Of a stretch of 38,703 bases of DNA, positions 23,877-38,226 are shown in pieces; position 1 is the first letter of the stretch; every line of letters starts with the position of its first letter. The notes beneath the pieces are model-generated. The model saw only the letters and a list, made by a program, of their open reading frames with translations. It did not search any database and had not been told where the DNA came from. This stretch comes from a virus (taxonomy: Duplodnaviria > Heunggongvirae > Uroviricota > Caudoviricetes), in IMG/VR virus record IMGVR_UViG_2724679538_000007, positions 1-38,703 of that record; one strand, given 5' to 3'. The position numbers and the translations under genes are program-made.

Positions 23877-24354
23877 TTTAGTCCTTGCAGCATTACGTAA
23901 GCTCGGTGTTGCATCAAATGCCACGTTAACCGATGTCGAACCGCAGTCTATGGAAGACGGGGTCAACGACCTTGAAATGATGATGGCTGAATGGCTTGGC
24001 GGTGATGTGTCACCTGGTATCAACGTTGGCTACATTTTTGCTGATGCAGATGTTGCTCCGGATCCTGGCGATGAGCACGGCTTATCAAATAACGCTATAA
24101 ATGCCGTCATTTTCAACCTTGCCTGCCGCATTGCTCCAGATTATGCGCTGGAAGCGCCAGCAAAACTTATAACCACTGCCAGATACGGGAAAGAGCGACT
24201 CGTCAAACTGTCTGCAATGGACAGAGCAAAAGCCGCTAAATGTAAGTCCGGTTATCCAAACCGTATGCCTGTTGGTAGCGGTAACCAGTTGGCGAAGTGG
24301 AACGGTTGGAATTACTTCCAGCGAAAGGAACCTTGCGATAACGGGAGCGAATAA
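23854..24354 (+). CDS. Head-tail adaptor (tail accessory factor), P22 gp4-like (166 aa)
   Basis: [43 protein letters not shown] ... [13 protein letters not shown] parallels P22 gp4; track ORF carries an upstream extension in this frame. Confidence 0.85.
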
Positions 24355-24450
24355 TGCCGATTCAGCAACTTCCGCTTATGAAAGGTGTCGGCAAAGACTT
24401 TAGAAACGCTGACTATATCGACTATCTGCCAGTGAATATGCTGGCAATTT
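24355..24450 (+). pseudogene. Remnant 5' fragment of gene 10 (31 gp10-like codons, then a premature stop)
   Basis: [31 protein letters not shown] matches the P22 gp10 N-terminus and starts directly after the gp4 stop; reading frame ends with ...ILI-stop; the intact gene 10 resumes about 670 bp downstream. Confidence 0.65.
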
Positions 24451-24494
24451 TGATATAATAAGTACATGAAAAATCGAAACTTTAAGGAGTAGAT

Positions 24495-25079
24495 ATGCTT
24501 TCTGAGAATGCTAAAGATATACCTGGATTTGAAGGTGTTTATGCCGTAACAGAAGATGGCAGGGTGTATTCTCACTCACGTGTTGTTAAGGCTGCGCATG
24601 GCAGCACGCAACTCAGAAAGGGGCGCTGGTTAAAGCCTAAAATAAATCAGGGAAGGGTGCTTTATAATATCGGAGCAAAATGGACTTTTGCCCATCGAAT
24701 CGTTGCAATGACATTCCTGCCAAATCCTGAAAACAAGCCTCAGGTAAATCATATTGATGGCAATCCACTCAATAATAACGTCAATAATCTTGAGTGGTGC
24801 ACTCAAAGCGAAAACATCAAACATGCATACGCCACAGGATTAAAGAAACCAATCAAGTTTTTCGGAACCAAGCACCCAAAACACAAGTTGAGTGATGACG
24901 ATGTTCTTGCAATCAAGTCATCAAAAGAAAGCTTGTCAGTAATTGCGGCTAAGTACGGGATATCTAAGACTTGGGCAAGTAGGCTAAAGCGTGATGCTAA
25001 CTGGGTTCATATAAAGGTTGATTCCAATGGCAATACAACAACTACCACTAATGAAGGGATTAGGGAAAAGTGCGGTTAA
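24495..25079 (+). CDS. HNH homing endonuclease (NUMOD4-like N-terminus, HNH core, C-terminal DNA-binding motif; 194 aa)
   Basis: GFEGVYAVTEDGRVYS (NUMOD4-like) and HRIVAMTFLPNPENKPQVNHIDGNPLNNNVNNLEWCTQSENIKHA (HNH); AAGGAG RBS; local AT-rich composition; splits gene 10. Confidence 0.85.
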   Translation: MLSENAKDIPGFEGVYAVTEDGRVYSHSRVVKAAHGSTQLRKGRWLKPKINQGRVLYNIGAKWTFAHRIVAMTFLPNPENKPQVNHIDGNPLNNNVNNLEWCTQSENIKHAYATGLKKPIKFFGTKHPKHKLSDDDVLAIKSSKESLSVIAAKYGISKTWASRLKRDANWVHIKVDSNGNTTTTTNEGIREKCG

Positions 25080-26445
25080 TGCTGATTATATAGACCAACT
25101 TCCAGTCAATCTTTTAGCTACGCCCAAGGAGGTGTTGAATTCATCGGGATATCTTCGCTCATTCCCGGGCATTGCCAAACGCTCTGATGTAAACGGCGTA
25201 TCTCGCGGCGTCGAGTACAACATGGCGCAGAATGCTGTTTATCGTGTGTGTGGTGGCAAGCTGTACAAAGGAGAAAGTGAAGTCGGTGACGTTGCCGGAA
25301 GTGGTCGCGTATCAATGGCACATGGTCGTATATCACAGGCGGTAGGGGTTAACGGGAAACTGGTCGAGTATCGCTATGATGGCACGATTAAAACCGTCTC
25401 AAACTGGCCTACAGACAGCGGATTCACGCAGTATGAGTTAGGCTCAGTCCGCGACATTACGCGCTTACGTGGGCGTTATGCGTGGTCAAAAGACGGCACT
25501 GATTCATGGTTTATCACTGATCTTGAAGACGAATCGCATCCTGACCGTTACAGCGCACAATATCGTGCCGAGTCTCAGCCGGACGGCATCATCGGTATCG
25601 GGACATGGCGAGACTTCATCGTCTGCTTTGGTTCATCGACTATTGAATATTTCTCCCTGACTGGCGCAACCACCGTTGGTGCTGCTTTGTATGTCGCACA
25701 GCCATCACTGATGGTGCAAAAAGGCATTGCCGGGACTTACTGCAAAACGCCATTCGCTGATTCTTATGCGTTCATCAGCAATCCTGCAACAGGTGCTCCG
25801 TCTGTATACATCATCGGCTCCGGTCAGGTATCACCAATCGCCAGCGCGAGCATTGAGAAAATACTACGCTCCTACACTGCTGATGAACTGGCTGATGGCG
25901 TGATGGAATCGTTGCGGTTTGATGCTCATGAGTTGCTGATTATTCACCTGCCGCGCCATGTTCTCGTGTACGACGCATCTTCAAGCGCCAATGGTCCGCA
26001 ATGGTGTGTGTTGAAAACTGGCTTGTATGACGATGTGTACCGCGCTATCGACTTCATTTACGAAGGCAATCAGATAACGTGCGGCGATAAGCTGGAGTCC
26101 ATGACCGGGAAATTGCAGTTCGACATCAGCAGCCAGTATGGGCTACAGCAAGAACACCTGCTGTTTACTCCACTCTTCAAAGCAGATAACGCCAGAGTTT
26201 TCGACCTTGAAGTTGAATCTTCAACTGGCGTAGCTCAGTACGCCGACCGCCTGTTCCTCTCTGCAACCACTGACGGCATAAATTATGGGCGTGAGCAGAT
26301 GATTGAGCAGAATGAACCGTTCGTTTACGACAAACGCGTTTTGTGGAAACGAGTAGGGCGCATCAGGAAAAACATTGGTTTCAAATTGCGCGTTATCACG
26401 AAGTCACCTGTCACTCTGTCTGGCTGCCAGATAAGGATTGAGTAA
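25027..26445 (+). CDS. Tail accessory/head completion protein, P22 gp10-like (about 473 aa; track ORF begins at a TTG at 25018)
   Basis: [49 protein letters not shown] ... parallels P22 gp10 through to the C-terminus; start overlaps the 3' end of the HNH gene. Confidence 0.9.
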
Positions 26446-31767: not shown

Positions 31768-32253
31768 CTACCTGATATTACTGCTACTGTTGCATGTTAC
31801 CGTGTTTCCAAATCCTGAATTGCAGTTTGTATATGTGTCAACGCGTGTTGGGTAAGGTTGAGTTATAACAGGCTGGCGCGCTTTTTGCTCGATCGCTTGC
31901 ATTGTGTTTACAGCCTGATAATTCAATAAAGCCTGCTGGAATGCTTGGCTTTGTGCTATTTGTTGGGCTTGTTCTTGGCTTTGTAATTGAACATAAAGAT
32001 TCTGAAGCTCAAGTCTTGCCTGTGCGTCACTTATCTTGCCTTCATCGACACCTTGCCCGAGCATCTTTGCAGCAAGGACATACAGCTTAGGTGTTGGTGC
32101 TGATGCCATGCGTGAGTCGTTCTTCACACTGGCATCAAGGCAATTAGCCATATCGCTAAGCTTTTGATAGCGTTGTTCGCAACTTGCTTGATAGTCACTT
32201 ACTTTTGCGCATCCAACCAGAAGAAGCGGGATAATTAACAGTGATTTTTTCAT
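31768..32253 (-). CDS. Lipoprotein (161 aa), antisense to the late operon; candidate superinfection-exclusion factor
   Basis: Signal peptide plus lipobox MKKSLLIIPLLLVGC; AAGGAG RBS; occupies the P22 sieA/immI position between gene 16 and the tailspike. Confidence 0.7.
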   Translation of the reverse strand: MKKSLLIIPLLLVGCAKVSDYQASCEQRYQKLSDMANCLDASVKNDSRMASAPTPKLYVLAAKMLGQGVDEGKISDAQARLELQNLYVQLQSQEQAQQIAQSQAFQQALLNYQAVNTMQAIEQKARQPVITQPYPTRVDTYTNCNSGFGNTVTCNSSSNIR

Positions 32254-32287
32254 ATAATTAACTCTCCTTAGTTTTTAGCAGGATACC

Positions 32288-32653
32288 ATGAAAAAAGTTA
32301 ACATTGGAAACGTACCAAAGATGCTCGTTCCGCTCTTTGAGAGCGGTACAATTGTGTTTTGTAGAGACTTTCCAGAATGGCAACGCCTGCATCAAAAACT
32401 TGGTGTGGACGTGCATGACTCGGACGCCAACGGAGCGTCTCATACAATGAGTAGCGAGAATGGTGTTTTGCATGTGATAGGCGTGTTCAATGGCAAACTA
32501 TCTACCATTGCCCATGAGTGCGCTCACATGGCATTCGATATCTGCTCAAGGGTAGGTGTTGATGTTGAACCAGGAAGAGCCAACGAGACTTACTGCTACT
32601 TAATGAGCAGGCTTGTTGAGTTCTGCGAGCGACATATCAAAAAGCCGGAGTGA
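32288..32653 (+). CDS. Small HExxH-motif protein (121 aa), possible zinc metallopeptidase-like regulator
   Basis: Motif IAHECAHMAFD (HExxH); ATG with AGGA RBS; diverges from the lipoprotein gene with only 34 bp between start codons. Confidence 0.5.
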   Translation: MKKVNIGNVPKMLVPLFESGTIVFCRDFPEWQRLHQKLGVDVHDSDANGASHTMSSENGVLHVIGVFNGKLSTIAHECAHMAFDICSRVGVDVEPGRANETYCYLMSRLVEFCERHIKKPE

Positions 32654-32666
32654 CCCGGCTTGATTA

Positions 32667-32846
32667 TTACTTTTTGCTGTCTGGAGTTCGCTTATCCAAT
32701 ACCCAGCCATGACCTGGCTTTGTTGTTGGTGGAAGCCTTTCGTTGTCCTTGACGGTTGCAAAATTGTCTTTCTTACCGCCGCGTGGGCCAACTTCTTGGT
32801 ATATTCCGCCGTTTTTTCCAGTGTTTTCACCTGGTTTTTTCGCCAT
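32667..32846 (-). CDS. YjzC-like small protein (59 aa)
   Basis: MAKKPGENTGKNGGIYQEVGPRGG resembles the YjzC-family motif (PGE..NG.Y.E.G..G) from memory; GAGGT RBS; track ORF is longer (32667..32861). Confidence 0.5.
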   Translation of the reverse strand: MAKKPGENTGKNGGIYQEVGPRGGKKDNFATVKDNERLPPTTKPGHGWVLDKRTPDSKK

Positions 32847-33007
32847 GATATACCTCAACATACACCCGTTATTGGGCGATTAAATATTGATCTCATTTTA
32901 TAAGTAGTCAATATGGTCTTGGTAATGTCAAAAATTAACCAATCGTCATCTGGGGTATCCGTAAAAACTCTTCAGTACATAACTACTGACAGATAACCAA
33001 CGCAAAG

Positions 33008-33032
33008 ACCCAGCTTCGGCTGGGTTTTTTTA
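33008..33032 (+). terminator. Hairpin plus T-tract upstream of the tailspike gene
   Basis: ACCCAGC-ttcg-GCTGGGT followed by TTTTTTTAT. Confidence 0.5.
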
Positions 33033-33089
33033 TGCCCAAAATTCACCGTAGCCATGCTGCGGCGATTCCTTGTATCTGGAGCAAATTAA

Positions 33090-34991
33090 ATGACAGATTC
33101 AATAAATGCCAATGTTGTAGTGAGTATGCCTTCGCAACTCTTCACTATGGCTCGTTCTTTTAAAGCCGTAGCCAATGGCAAAATTTATATCGGGAAAATT
33201 GACACTGATCCGGTAAATCCTGAAAACCGGATTCAGGTTTATGTAGAGAACGAAGACGGCTCTCACGTTCCTGTTTCTCAACCAATCATCATTAACGCTG
33301 CTGGTTATCCGGTATATAACGGACAGATTGCTAAATTCGTAACTGTGCAAGGCCATTCCATGGCTGTTTATGATGCGTATGGTGCACAGCAATTCTATTT
33401 TCCTAATGTGCTGAAGTATGACCCTGACCAGTTCAAACCTGAACTACAAGGTGCCAATGGAGCAAGCTTAATTGGTACTAATCATCGCGGCACCTTAAAG
33501 GCTGACTTAGATCGCATTGACAATAGAACGTCGGGACAGTCCATCGCAGATTTAAAGTCTAATACTGGTGATATTGTTATCGACTCCTCTGTTACGGACG
33601 CAATCACCCCAATTTCAGGCAGCGAGATATCTGGGGCGAGTAACGGGGAACATGTCACCGCTAAGGGTACTGTCGGGATTACTATAAATGATAGCAGGGT
33701 TAAGGTTGATAACTTGCTAATGCGCGGCGACGGCACTGTAGACTACACGGACACCTCACCGACATATAATGCCATTATCTATGGCTCGGACGTTGTTGTG
33801 TCCCGTTCATACGCTAAAGACACGACAATGGGGTACGACTTGGCCGCCGGTGCTTCCAACGTTAAGCTAATTGGTAATACAAGTGAAAATATGACGTCGC
33901 ACCCCGCCGTTGGTACACCACCTGTTTCAGCCGGTGGCTATGGTGTGCTTCTGGGAACTAACGAGGACGTATTAATCCTGGGCCATTCTGCTAAGGGCAC
34001 AAACCCTGCTGACCGCCACGCAGTATACCTATCAAATACGAACAACACTGACCAGAACAAAGATGTTCGGGTAATCGGCTTACGTGCGGATTACAGCGCA
34101 GGTCCATCCGCGGGGGATAAGCCGGAGCGGTCATCACCTATGATATTCGCCCGCGGCAACAACGGCGTCATTATCAGTTCTTCCCAACTCCGTGGCGGCG
34201 GAGCCGGTATAAATTTCACAGATGAGCGCGTAGGATACAGTTCAATAACCTTGAGTGATTTGCAATTACTGGATATTCGTAAGAATACCGCGGATGAGTC
34301 ATGGGGTATCGCACTCAACCACGCGTCTGCTAACGCTTCCAATGTCAACACCCAGAATATTATTAACGGCGTTAATATAGTAATGGCGCCCGGGAGCACA
34401 TCTGCCGACAGGTCGAATCAGTACCCTATACACCTTAATTCACAGCGGTATGTAAATATTGATAATGCCATCATAGCATCGTCGGGGTTGGCGTACGGAA
34501 TACGCCTGATAGCTACAAGTTACTGTAATATCAGTAATGTAGTAGGGTTTACTAACGATGGGACATCTGCCGCGGCGGCCGTGGCGTTCTTCCAGTTTCA
34601 GAACGGAAGCAGTAATATTAAATTAAGCAATATAAACGTCCAATCAAGAAATACAATGTTCGCAGGGCTGGATAATGTAACCGACTTGCAAGTGGATTGG
34701 GTGCGTAAAGTTCGCATTAACGTTGTATCTGGAGCGGCTACAGTATCAGGGGATATATGGGAACTAGTTAGCGGCGTAACCGTCACTGGGGCGAGTATAG
34801 CTGTTCAACTTAAGGGCCATGTAACACAAACCGCTGCTGATGGCGCTATCGTAAGGCCGGCTAGTGCTAATCAATTTATTGTTGCTGGCACTGACTCTAA
34901 AAGGATTACAATTTCTGTATATAACGTTAATGGCACTGGTGTTGTGCCAAACACTGGTACTTATTCGTTCGATATTGTGCTATATAAATAG
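33090..34991 (+). CDS. Tailspike protein (P22 gp9-like N-terminal head-binding domain, divergent receptor-binding domain; 633 aa)
   Basis: N-terminal about 120 aa parallel P22 tailspike (ANVVVS ... [22 protein letters not shown] ... [12 protein letters not shown] ... NVLKYDPDQ); the rest is unrelated by eye and Gly/Asn/Ser-rich, consistent with a beta-helix. Confidence 0.88.
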
Positions 34992-35015
34992 GGCATCATT
35001 GCCCTATTTATTGTT
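34991..35015. terminator. Hairpin between the convergent tailspike and gtrC-like genes
   Basis: AGGGCA-tcat-TGCCCT followed by ATTTATTGTT. Confidence 0.4.
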
Positions 35016-35050
35016 ATCCATGGATCACTTCTTGGTAAGGTGGTCTTTAA

Positions 35051-36499
35051 CTATCGACATTTGTTGAAGTCAAATATCATTGTGTCATTATGAATAAGTG
35101 TGGTGTAGATACTATTACTTCTGTATGGTTTTTTGCACGATGATGCCAATGCAGATGGTAAGTTTATCTTAGAATCATAATCTACTTTTATTCCCATGCT
35201 GTTAAAAATAAATGCCCCAAACATCCAGTCTGATCTGATATATGATGGAGTAATCATGCCAATGATTCCGATTTTTTCATTAGCGTTTTGTACTGGTTGA
35301 GGAAATGAAGTTAACCCATTAAATCTTATTTTAGTTATATTTTGGCTTGATGTTATGTCCTTAGCCATAGAATAAAATAAAAATTCCTCTTTGCTCTTCT
35401 GTGCTTGTAAGGAATTCCCATACATGTAACTAACAATAAAGCACGAGAAAATTAAAGGGATAGGTGTGAAAAACGTCCATCTATTGGCGCTTGAAGATAT
35501 AATATAAACTGAAAAAAACATGAGACCAGAAAATCCTACTAATACCCTGGGATATACAACAGGTTCATCTAGAATAAAAAGAACGCCAATAACAGATAAT
35601 AATACGCCAAATATGCATATTAATGTAGCTATTGTCGTGTTAATTGTTTTTCTTTGAAATGCATTTGTGAATGACATTGCTATTGCTATTGATAATGTTA
35701 TAGCAAATATACCCCCCAGAAATCCCGAAAGAGCCTTTAATATCATACTTGTGTAAATTTTGTAATTTTCTGATACATTAAATGCAAGACCTTTTACATT
35801 TAATGCTAATTGAGCATGGTTTGTGCTATATGCGCCAGAAACATAAATGCTAGCAATTAGTAGTTTATAAATAATAAGTGCGGCAGTTAATGCCAGTATA
35901 TATACTGAAATATTCTTAAGAAGTGTTGTTATATTATCTGTTGATTTTAAAATAATACAATTCAAACAAGTGAGAGCAATAAATATGTTTACTGATGATT
36001 GATACAGGCTTAAAGTAAAAACCAACAGAATGATCGATGTCGCGAAATTTATAAAACTTTTGTTTTTTAAAAGAAGTGCGGCGGACACAACAGATAATGA
36101 CACAGAGAGTGACATTGTAAATACGTCAAATTTGTAAGACAAATTTTGAAGATAAAAAGGTGATACAATCAAAGATAGTGAAATTAATACTACCCTAAAT
36201 TTTCCTTCGAGTTTGGTTATGAAACAATAATAATAACAAGAGGTTATCATTGTTAACATTGATAGCAAAAGAGGCATTGGTGATATGTTGATAACCTTAC
36301 CACCAAATGACATACCTTTAATTATCCATTCTGCAAGCGGTCTACCATTGTCTGCCCATCTTGCATATCCAGCAATATTTCTTGATATGTCGTCAATGTA
36401 GAAAACATTGCCAATAATCAATGGTAATGAGTATAGAATAGCAAGTGTAATGGCATAGGTATATCCATTACGTTTTAAATACATTATAAATGAGTTCAT
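35051..36499 (-). CDS. Serotype-specific O-antigen glucosyltransferase, GtrC-type polytopic membrane protein (482 aa)
   Basis: Third gene of a gtrA-gtrB-X operon; many predicted TM helices; strongly AT-rich relative to the rest of the prophage; GtrC-type proteins are typically this divergent. Confidence 0.7.
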
Positions 36500-37416
36500 T
36501 GTGTTTTACCTTTTATTATATAACGAGGTCTCATCTTTGTTTCTGTGTAAATTCTTCCAATGTATTCACCTAGCACACCAATACCTATCAATTGGACGCC
36601 GCCAAGGAACAGAATAGACACGAGCAATGAAGGATAACCACGAACAGGGTTTCCAAACACCAGTGTGTCAAGAATCATCAACGCACCGTAAATAAATGCC
36701 ATACTGGCAACAAAAAGCCCGATATAAGTCCACATGCGTAGTGGGAATGTTGAGAAACTTGTTATTCCCTCAAGGGCTAAATTCCACAACTTCCATCCGT
36801 TAAATTTCGTGCTCCCTGCTACACGTTCGGCGCGAACATATTCTACAACATCAGTCTTTCCGCCAACCCAACTCAGTATACCCTTCATGAATAGGTTGCG
36901 TTCTTGCATGAGCTTAATATTTTCTACAACTTCACGGCTCATTAACCGGAAATCACCAACATTTTCCTCAATCTTTGGATTACTTATTTTGTTGTGTAGC
37001 TTATAGAACCACTCAGCAGTTTTGCGCTTCAGACGACCATCAGTAGATCGATCTGATCGTTTGGCAAGAACCATATCAGCGCCTGCCTGCCACTTTTCTA
37101 TAAGATGAGGAATAACCTCAATCGGGTCTTGCAGGTCAACATCAATTGGAATCACGGCATCGCCAGTTGCATGGTCTAACCCTGCAAACAATGCTGGTTC
37201 TTTACCAAAGTTGCGTGTAAATGACAGCGGAACAACTAGCGGATCAGAAACAGCCAGAGCGTTAATGATTGACTCCGTAGCGTCTTTGCTTCCGTCATTT
37301 ATGAAAACAATTTCTACTTCATATGACTTCAACTCTTCGAATTCACGTACCGTTTTATAGAAAATTGGTATCGCTTCTTCTTCATTGAAGACAGGAACGA
37401 CCAGAGATATCTTCAT
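36496..37416 (-). CDS. gtrB: Bactoprenol glucosyltransferase GtrB (GT2 family, 306 aa)
   Basis: [19 protein letters not shown] ... INDGSKD ... two C-terminal TM helices; typical GtrB organisation. Confidence 0.92.
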
Positions 37417-37775
37417 TTCGCATCCCTAAAGACAATGAACTTTGAATAGACGAAACCGCACACCAGGCTGATGGCGGAGAAAGTGATAAGGGTGACCATC
37501 GGGGGAAGTGCGCATCTATCAGCAGCCCACCCGACGACAACACTCAAGGTTCCCATGAATCCCACGTATAACAAGTAACGCATCGTTGTAGTCGATGCTT
37601 TGAATGTGAATCTTGCATTCGCGAAGAAGCTAAAGCTCACAGCTACTATGAAACCTGCGAAGTTTGCCATAGCTTGATTTGTATGCGCTGCATAGATACA
37701 TACACCAAAAACCACCCAGTGTATAAGTGTGTTCAGCACACCAATTGAGGTGTACTTTGCAAATAGCTTTAACAT
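37413..37775 (-). CDS. gtrA: GtrA-type flippase (small four-TM protein, 120 aa)
   Basis: Size, hydrophobicity and position as the first gene of the gtr operon, overlapping the gtrB start. Confidence 0.88.
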
Positions 37776-37929
37776 TTATTTAATCAATGAGTTCTGAAGG
37801 GCATGAAGTCTATCATCCAAGTCTCAATCGATCGATACTTGGTGTGGTTGATGGGGCAAAACTGAGACACAAAAAGCTTTGCACTGAATTGCAAGGCTTA
37901 GTGCATTCTCTGGAGTGCGATATGTTCTG

Positions 37930-37975
37930 ATGACAAAAAATTAGCGCAAGAAGACAAAAAATCACCTTGCGCTAA
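37930..37975 (-). terminator. Perfect 10-bp inverted repeat plus U-tract between host ybhB and the gtr operon (minus strand)
   Basis: Plus strand TTAGCGCAAG-aagacaaaaaatcac-CTTGCGCTAA; on the minus strand the hairpin is followed by ATTTTTTGT. Confidence 0.5.
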
Positions 37976-37977
37976 TG

Positions 37978-38136
37978 CTCTGTCTCAGGTCACTAATACT
38001 ATCTAAGTAGTTGATTCATAGTGACTGCACATGCTGTGTTTTGCAGTATTATGTAGTCTATTATTTAGACAAAAATCTTCATAACGCATTGATATTAATG
38101 TTTTTTACTGTTTCTTGTTCAGCTTTTTTATACTAA
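37978..38136 (+). other. attR: lambda-type P arm with Int arm-type sites, ending in the 15-bp core GCTTTTTTATACTAA (38122-38136)
   Basis: caggtcactaatactatctaagtagttgattcatagtgactgca...cagcttttttatactaacttgagcgaaacggg parallels the lambda attP P arm and the core/attB B' junction as I recall them. Confidence 0.8.
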
Positions 38137-38226
38137 CTTGAGCGAAACGGGAAGGTAAAAAGACAAAAAGTTGTTTTTAATACCTTTAAGTGATACCAGA
38201 TGGCATTGCGCCATCTGGTTGAGCAA

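Follow-up and report, generated by a model that had tools for sequence, protein, structure and literature searches.

The tailspike gene analysed here lies in a window of 38,703 nucleotides, positions 1 to 38,703 of the IMG/VR virus record IMGVR_UViG_2724679538_000007 (Caudoviricetes), which was apparently an intact P22-like prophage. With a probability of about 0.8, its product is a P22-like tailspike of four modules, in which a conserved anchor carries a swapped receptor unit and which is co-inherited with a gtrABC operon that would alter the receptor. The exact protein (P0001) was found in a single record, named 'phage head-binding domain-containing protein [Escherichia fergusonii]', of the Escherichia fergusonii assembly GCA_000968885.2 (contig JZWP02000001.1), and it was a singleton in the protein collection. 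The features of the locus are listed in Table 1.

Similarity to known tailspikes was confined to the N-terminus. The sole Pfam domain of the protein was Head_binding (PF09008), covering residues 4-114 with an E-value of 1.1e-64. In BLASTP, P22 gp9 shared 86 of 118 residues (73%) over positions 1-118, and no significant alignment was obtained past residue 118. Sequence matches in the PDB were restricted to Sf6 gp14 (residues 1-134) and P22 gp9 (residues 5-118), with the head-binding domain of Sf6 gp14 about 90% identical to that of the window protein. In the phage collection, HK620, Sf101, Sf6 and CUS-3 aligned with 81-90% identity to residues 1-119 to 1-148 only, and the receptor domains of Sf6, HK620 and CUS-3 were unrelated in sequence. 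The same boundary appeared in DNA comparisons. Of 5,426 complete Escherichia coli genomes, 1,067 matched the gene from nucleotide 1 to 341-357 with 91-97% identity, and none matched past these positions. The late-region homology with the coliphages Louie and APC_JM3.2 (95% identical nucleotides) stopped at window position ~33431. Both DNA breaks fell at codon ~115, directly after a YDPDQF motif, and residues 1-115 are the known extent of the head-binding domain (PMC2629481). This domain would dock the spike, presumably as a trimer, on the tail hub. The original prediction, made from the sequence alone, that only the first 120 or so residues parallel P22 gp9 was borne out by these results. Full-length identity to a characterised tailspike was absent, and the best receptor-domain matches in the phage collection were unannotated or hypothetical proteins with 27-31% identity.

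The remainder had been expected to differ from P22 and to form a beta-helix, and structure prediction agreed with both expectations. An AlphaFold2 model of the monomer, built with a 26-sequence alignment, reached a mean predicted local distance difference test score (pLDDT) of 86.7, and most of residues 150-633 were above 90. It consisted of four parts, the head-binding domain, neck helices, a three-stranded coil and a beta-sandwich of residues ~530-633. The high-confidence prediction for the coil was a standard right-handed parallel beta-helix of the tailspike and pectin-lyase type. Fold relatives in the structure list were a GH87 alpha-1,3-glucanase (35.3), the K1-specific depolymerase of Klebsiella phage K64-1 (33.6), the AlgE4 epimerase (33.1), the Det7 tailspike (32.5), the K1 lyase (30.8), the RbmB lyase (30.3) and the K5 lyase (29.9). 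The tailspikes of Det7, HK620 and Sf6 were among the Foldseek matches with 10-13% identity, and structural alignments with the Sf6/HK620/CUS-3 group gave 9-13%. Foldseek matches in BFVD were exclusively generic viral proteins of the 'pectate lyase superfamily'. The fold by itself does not discriminate a hydrolase from a lyase. The neck is a second recombination joint. In the 26-sequence alignment its residues T130, H132, R133, G134, L136, D139, L140, D144, R146 and G149 were invariant, and none of these ten positions was fully invariant in the broader set of 44 sequences. The C-terminal cap can be exchanged on its own and probably has a role in trimerisation or folding.

Together, neck, helix and cap constitute a small family that lacks a characterised member, and the subtype found in the window has no serogroup assignment. 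Residues 115-633 had no match in Pfam, PHROG or NCBIfam, and a phmmer search of the same residues against the PDB gave no meaningful match. A family profile searched against the PDB was rejected since its alignment still contained the anchors and matched only N-terminal anchor domains. Searched exhaustively with phmmer, 1.84 billion cluster representatives yielded only 50 with E <= 1e-3, most of them spanning the whole neck-helix-cap unit. The helix-and-cap part, from residue 151 on, was absent from the 5,426 complete E. coli genomes, also in the sensitive blastn mode. The nearest relative, P0002, was 84% identical overall and was encoded at the corresponding position of another P22-like prophage, which also has this gtr operon. 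Proteins P0003-P0006 showed 60-63% receptor-domain identity in other surroundings. P0004 carried a Tail_spike_N anchor and took the place of the tail fibre in a P2-like myovirus, and the gene for P0003 lay beside siphovirus tail genes, in a phage that also encodes a family A polymerase. More distant relatives, with 27% receptor-domain identity, were encoded in the tailspike cluster of the Agtrevirus EspM4VN and in a Kayfunavirus. The named hosts of prophage family members included Cronobacter, Proteus, Citrobacter and Candidatus Erwinia dacicola. The subtype of the window appears to occur only in E. fergusonii, E. marmotae and a few E. coli. Two phage records with domain relatives bore implausible host labels: the Kayfunavirus (L006, OR786095.1) was classified as such and deposited as 'Staphylococcus phage MBBL139', and a 150-kb record without annotation (H1, MG065650.1) was named 'Campylobacter phage B15'. 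A further family member, P0152 (515 amino acids), started with the signal-peptide-like sequence MERRFFLKALVTILALNQYSILKAAG in place of a phage anchor. By analogy with Pantoea WceF, this protein may derive from a tailspike and now serve a bacterium as a secreted enzyme.

Identity to these relatives differed sharply from module to module. P0010 was 100% identical in the anchor, 73% in the neck, 19% in the helix and 65% in the cap, and the corresponding values for P0003 were 20%, 76%, 58% and 92%, indicating separate histories of the modules. Codon-aligned nucleotide identities, computed in 30-codon windows, agreed with this. The gene for P0002 was 92-100% identical to the window gene up to residue 150 and 57-83% thereafter. 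Identity to the P0010 gene was high to about residues 120-150 and then collapsed. The P0003 gene was unrelated up to residue 120, showed 47-71% in the helix and rose to 83-98% over residues 541-630. An alignment of window positions 32264-37904 with the prophage of P0002 (L001) revealed an island of 61-78% nucleotide identity from ~33540 to 34963 with sharp bounds, flanked by 95-100% identity on both sides. Inside the island, synonymous sites were saturated, and the rate of nonsynonymous substitution (dN) in the helix was 0.115. These values point to strong purifying selection on the receptor domain and suggest that the receptor unit is an old, selectively maintained allele and not a fast-evolving copy. 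The stretch from about residue 150 to the stop codon is a diverged allele within an otherwise nearly identical genome, and its pattern argues that recombination brought the receptor unit into this phage background. Recombination at the module joints likewise moves the neck-helix-cap unit between podo-, myo- and siphoviruses. Cross-genus exchange with conserved joints is known for O-antigen-specific tailspikes of E. coli (PMC10408124) and has also been described in Ackermannviridae (PMC8432352). The receptor module found here resembles the swapping in Ackermannviridae, Kayfunavirus and Lederbergvirus in that the same module stands on different anchors behind conserved joints, and the island bounded by such joints is a clean natural example of specificity-cassette exchange. 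As a separate observation, an HNH_3 endonuclease gene was located directly 5' of the tailspike gene in the P0007 prophage (L012, 5486-5974), which suggests that homing endonucleases recur near tailspike module joints.

The original prediction had also pointed to a neighbouring gtr operon as a link of receptor specificity and receptor modification in one locus. A complete gtrABC operon was indeed present, convergent with the tailspike gene and separated from its stop codon by 59 bp, and the GtrC type co-occurred with the tailspike type in other Escherichia genomes. The three genes formed one operon on a single strand with 4-bp overlaps at 36496-36499 and 37413-37416. The GC content (guanine plus cytosine) of gtrC was 29-34%, compared with 41-52% in the tailspike gene and gtrA/gtrB, which suggests a foreign origin of the serotype-specific gene. 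The window GtrC was 27-28% identical to P22-type GtrC and 99% identical to the GtrC beside the P0002 tailspike (L001); its gene was absent from all complete E. coli genomes. Twenty proteins, encoded in E. fergusonii, E. marmotae and E. coli, made up the 90%-identity cluster of P0002, and the GtrC cluster comprised 18 members. Eight contig sizes were common to both clusters (268095, 4584354, 4582934, 16373, 21828, 5856, 4374 and 4286), and in two cases tailspike and GtrC had consecutive accessions (MGL6662946/47 and MCR1076950/49). Based on the common contig sizes and consecutive accessions, this tailspike subtype and this GtrC type travel together. An attempt to trace co-variation of the two types through the family at large failed, with distant P22-like members lacking an adjacent gtr operon or residing on short contigs. 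The P22 gtr switch has four GATC sites. A P22-style Dam/OxyR phase-variation switch was not evident in the 365 bp upstream of gtrA (37776-38140), where one GATC was present (37830). The arrangement of tailspike and gtr genes is standard in P22 and epsilon34 (PMC2629481) and is not a new link.

In the proposed mechanism, the beta-helix would recognise and most likely cleave a repeating host surface polysaccharide, so that the virion works its way down to the outer membrane. Judged by the P22-like context and the gtr linkage, this polysaccharide is most probably the O-antigen. In lysogens, gtrABC would glucosylate the same polysaccharide and alter the receptor, the two functions being inherited together. 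By analogy with P22, epsilon34 and the Shigella Sf phages (PMC2629481), glucosylation may protect lysogens against the same phage. A capsule or exopolysaccharide such as K antigen or colanic acid, as targeted by the CUS-3 endosialidase and the Klebsiella depolymerases, is quite unlikely to be the target. The spike was tightly co-inherited with an operon that modifies the O-antigen (PMC2629481), and its relatives occurred in Agtrevirus (Ackermannviridae) and Kayfunavirus (one of eight genera), groups with serogroup- or receptor-specific tailspike subtypes (PMC10408124, PMC8432352).

That the domain binds its glycan without enzymatic activity, or that the gene has lost its function in a defective prophage, would fit with the lack of a recognised catalytic motif or Pfam enzyme domain and with the singleton status of the exact allele. 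We consider this very unlikely, given the intact open reading frame with a good ribosome-binding site, the intact state of all upstream virion genes, the dN of 0.115 at saturated synonymous sites and an invariant polar strip along one face of the helix.

This strip was defined with 44 family representatives of about 20-25% mutual identity. The helix residues G282, Y284, R309, H310, Y313 and R355 were invariant in these representatives and in the 26 relatives of the narrower alignment. R520, R539, H577 and T579, located where the helix ends and in the cap, were also invariant in the 44 representatives. DSSP assignment of the AlphaFold2 model showed strand pairs with two-residue turns alternating with single strands. 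Judged by this strand pattern, residues 284-289, 310-315, 350-355 and 372-377 would be the strands of parallel beta-sheet 1 (PB1) in consecutive coils, and the invariant residues would form a strip on the substrate-groove face of three consecutive coils.

The chemistry at this candidate active site can be read in more than one way. The receptor domain could be a classical endoglycosidase like the tailspikes of P22, Sf6 and HK620, acting as a hydrolase through the carboxylates D378/E379, E346 or D293. Hydrolysis is a serious but tentative candidate. No aspartate or glutamate of the helix was invariant in either the 44 representatives or the 26 relatives, the invariant polar residues being Tyr, Arg, His, Tyr and Arg. 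The best-conserved acid, E379, was replaced by glutamine in 5 of the 26 sequences, and the same change inactivates HK620 at E372 (E372Q, the inactive mutant in PDB entries).

Metal-independent beta-elimination by Tyr284, His310 and Arg309/Arg355 is a further possibility, held with equal reserve and suggested by residue conservation. Tailspike lyases of the K1 and KflA type, which need no metal, have a Tyr base, a His acid and an Arg neutraliser in the groove; their substrates contain uronic acid and their products are unsaturated. The K1 lyase of a Klebsiella phage is metal-independent and uses Tyr311, His373 and Arg397, with Arg333 and His334 placed by the -1 site (PMC8822698). An hhalign comparison of the family profile with the K1 lyase sequence gave a sole local alignment (GWYGV...DVRHAIS with GGYGV...DRHAVYLS) with an E-value of 0.55. 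When the single sequence was replaced by a profile built from eight K1-lyase relatives, the register was unchanged, with a score of 44.3, an E-value of 1.7e-4 and a probability of 49%, a weak match. This register paired Y284 with the catalytic Y311, and R309-H310 with R333-H334. Reversed and column-shuffled controls reached scores of at most 20.4. Binding only, or some other activity, is unlikely.

Several points weigh against parts of this interpretation. Reversal and column shuffling destroy the periodicity of a beta-helix, so that these controls are lenient and give no proof of homology to the K1 lyase. With the hhalign option '-M first', the register moved by several coils (E-value 0.005), and His373 and Arg397 of the K1 lyase were paired with no conserved residue of the family. 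The structural model is that of a monomer, and the trimer, of which P22-like virions have six copies, is presumed. The P22-like prophages of P0007 and P0018 had no gtr operon beside the tailspike, indicating that the gtr linkage is a property of the window subtype and not of the whole family.

A more far-reaching proposal would unite these elements. The neck-helix-cap unit would be a new small depolymerase family, remotely akin to the K1 lyase, which cleaves by metal-independent beta-elimination with Tyr, His and Arg and which conserved neck and C-terminal joints carry between five kinds of tailed phages. The partner of this unit in E. fergusonii and E. marmotae would be a dedicated GtrC, which would mask the O-antigen that the unit cleaves, a polymer with uronic acid. 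This proposal is speculative and, taken as a whole, rather doubtful. A literature search found no usable O-antigen structures of E. fergusonii.

Among characterised systems, P22 gp9, an endorhamnosidase, has the same overall plan as the window tailspike. Besides the head-binding domain, both have their gene after gp16 at the end of the late region and an anchor, neck, beta-helix and cap arrangement, and P22 also carries gtrABC (PMC2629481). The two differ in that similarity ended after the head-binding domain, and in that the window prophage uses a lambda-type int/att system and not thrW. The head-binding domains of Sf6 gp14, HK620 gp9 and CUS-3, with 82-90% identity, were closer to that of the window protein than P22's, and these tailspikes have a common beta-helix fold class. 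In contrast, no receptor-domain homology to P22, Sf6, HK620 or CUS-3 was found, including their catalytic carboxylates, and the PDB held no match for the receptor part. In epsilon34 and P22-like prophages, an anchor of residues 1-115 is conserved, the C-terminal parts are unrelated, and a gtrABC cluster with a serotype-specific gtrC is carried (PMC2629481). The window shares this combination of conserved anchor, unrelated receptor domain and gtrABC cassette, whereas its receptor domain and GtrC types were not found in the phage collection or the complete E. coli genomes. The K1 lyase of Klebsiella phage NTUH-K2044-K1-1 (PDB 7W1C) and the K64-1 protein S2-4 differ in their anchors and C-terminal domains, and the K1 lyase targets capsule. 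The modular architecture and the adjacent gtr genes are thus textbook P22-like features. Beyond the ordinary are the uncharacterised small family, its unusual set of invariant residues, the clean recombination bounds and the tight pairing with a rare GtrC. Tailspike receptor domains set the host range of phages and are used as serotyping reagents and depolymerase enzymes. With the window receptor domain, the known repertoire would grow by one specificity and possibly by a new active site of lyase type.

Table 1. Features of the tailspike locus and its surroundings (window coordinates).
Feature	Position	Strand	Basis or remark
Intrinsic-terminator-like hairpin, ACCCAGC-ttcg-GCTGGGT followed by T7	33008..33032	+	5' of the tailspike gene; from sequence
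Shine-Dalgarno sequence GGAG	33078..33081	+	8 nt 5' of the ATG; from sequence
Tailspike gene (gp9 homologue), 633 aa	33090..34991	+	open reading frame list; ATG start, TAG stop
Head-binding (tail-docking) domain, aa 1-115	33090..33434	+	Pfam PF09008; similarity to P22 gp9 and Sf6 gp14
Helical neck, aa 116-159, with family motif	33435..33566	+	AlphaFold2 helices 112-158
Right-handed parallel beta-helix, aa ~160-525	33567..34664	+	predicted polysaccharide-binding/cleaving module
Invariant strip G282/Y284, R309-H310, Y313, R355	33939..34154	+	candidate active site
C-terminal beta-sandwich, aa 526-633	34665..34988	+	AlphaFold2 strands 530-631; R539, H577, T579 invariant
10-bp inverted repeat, AAATAGGGCA-tcat-TGCCCTATTT	34986..35009		overlaps the tailspike stop codon
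gtrC-type serotype-specific O-antigen glucosyltransferase, 482 aa	35051..36499	-	Pfam Glucos_trans_II PF14264, E 6e-34
gtrB, bactoprenol glucosyltransferase (GT2)	36496..37416	-	Pfam PF00535, E 3e-31
gtrA, flippase-type small membrane protein	37413..37775	-	Pfam PF04138, E 7e-14
lambda att core GCTTTTTTATACTAA (attR, right prophage end)	38122..38136	+	one exact match versus 0 expected

The tailspike gene came last among the virion genes, after the ejection-protein genes gp7, gp20 and gp16, as in P22. The terminator scan reported the stem of the hairpin upstream of the gene on the opposite strand. As in P22, antitermination may let late transcripts pass this hairpin. The inverted repeat between the tailspike gene and gtrC, which converge on it, is a putative bidirectional terminator.

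The virion genes present in the window were those for terminase, portal, scaffold, coat, gp4, gp10, gp26, gp14, gp7, gp20 and gp16. Pfam domains of the neighbouring proteins were P22_CoatProtein, P22_Tail-4, Phage_stabilise, P22_gp7, Inj_translocase and Phage_P22_gp16. Between gp16 and the tailspike gene (31768-32861), the P22 immI genes mnt, arc and ant, which lie upstream of the tailspike gene in P22, and sieA were absent. This region held a 161-aa lipoprotein-like open reading frame with no similarity to P22 SieA, a 121-aa frame without a family and a 64-aa YjzC-like frame, and the same trio was present in the relatives L001 and L011. At the left end of the window, a lambda-type integrase of 356 aa with Arm-DNA-bind_1 and Phage_integrase domains was encoded on the minus strand (1-1071). 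At the right end, a lambda-like P arm with the exact lambda att core spanned 37900-38136 and was followed by the host genes ybhB-bioA-bioBFCD-uvrB. The phage with P22-type virion genes is integrated at the lambda site of E. fergusonii, beside ybhB and the bio genes. Further upstream in the virion block, at 24354-25079 and 25027-26445, an HNH_3/NUMOD4 endonuclease frame (24495-25079) was located between a 34-aa remnant and the intact gp10 homologue. The remnant duplicated the N-terminus of gp10, and together with the endonuclease frame it suggests a past insertion of a homing endonuclease.

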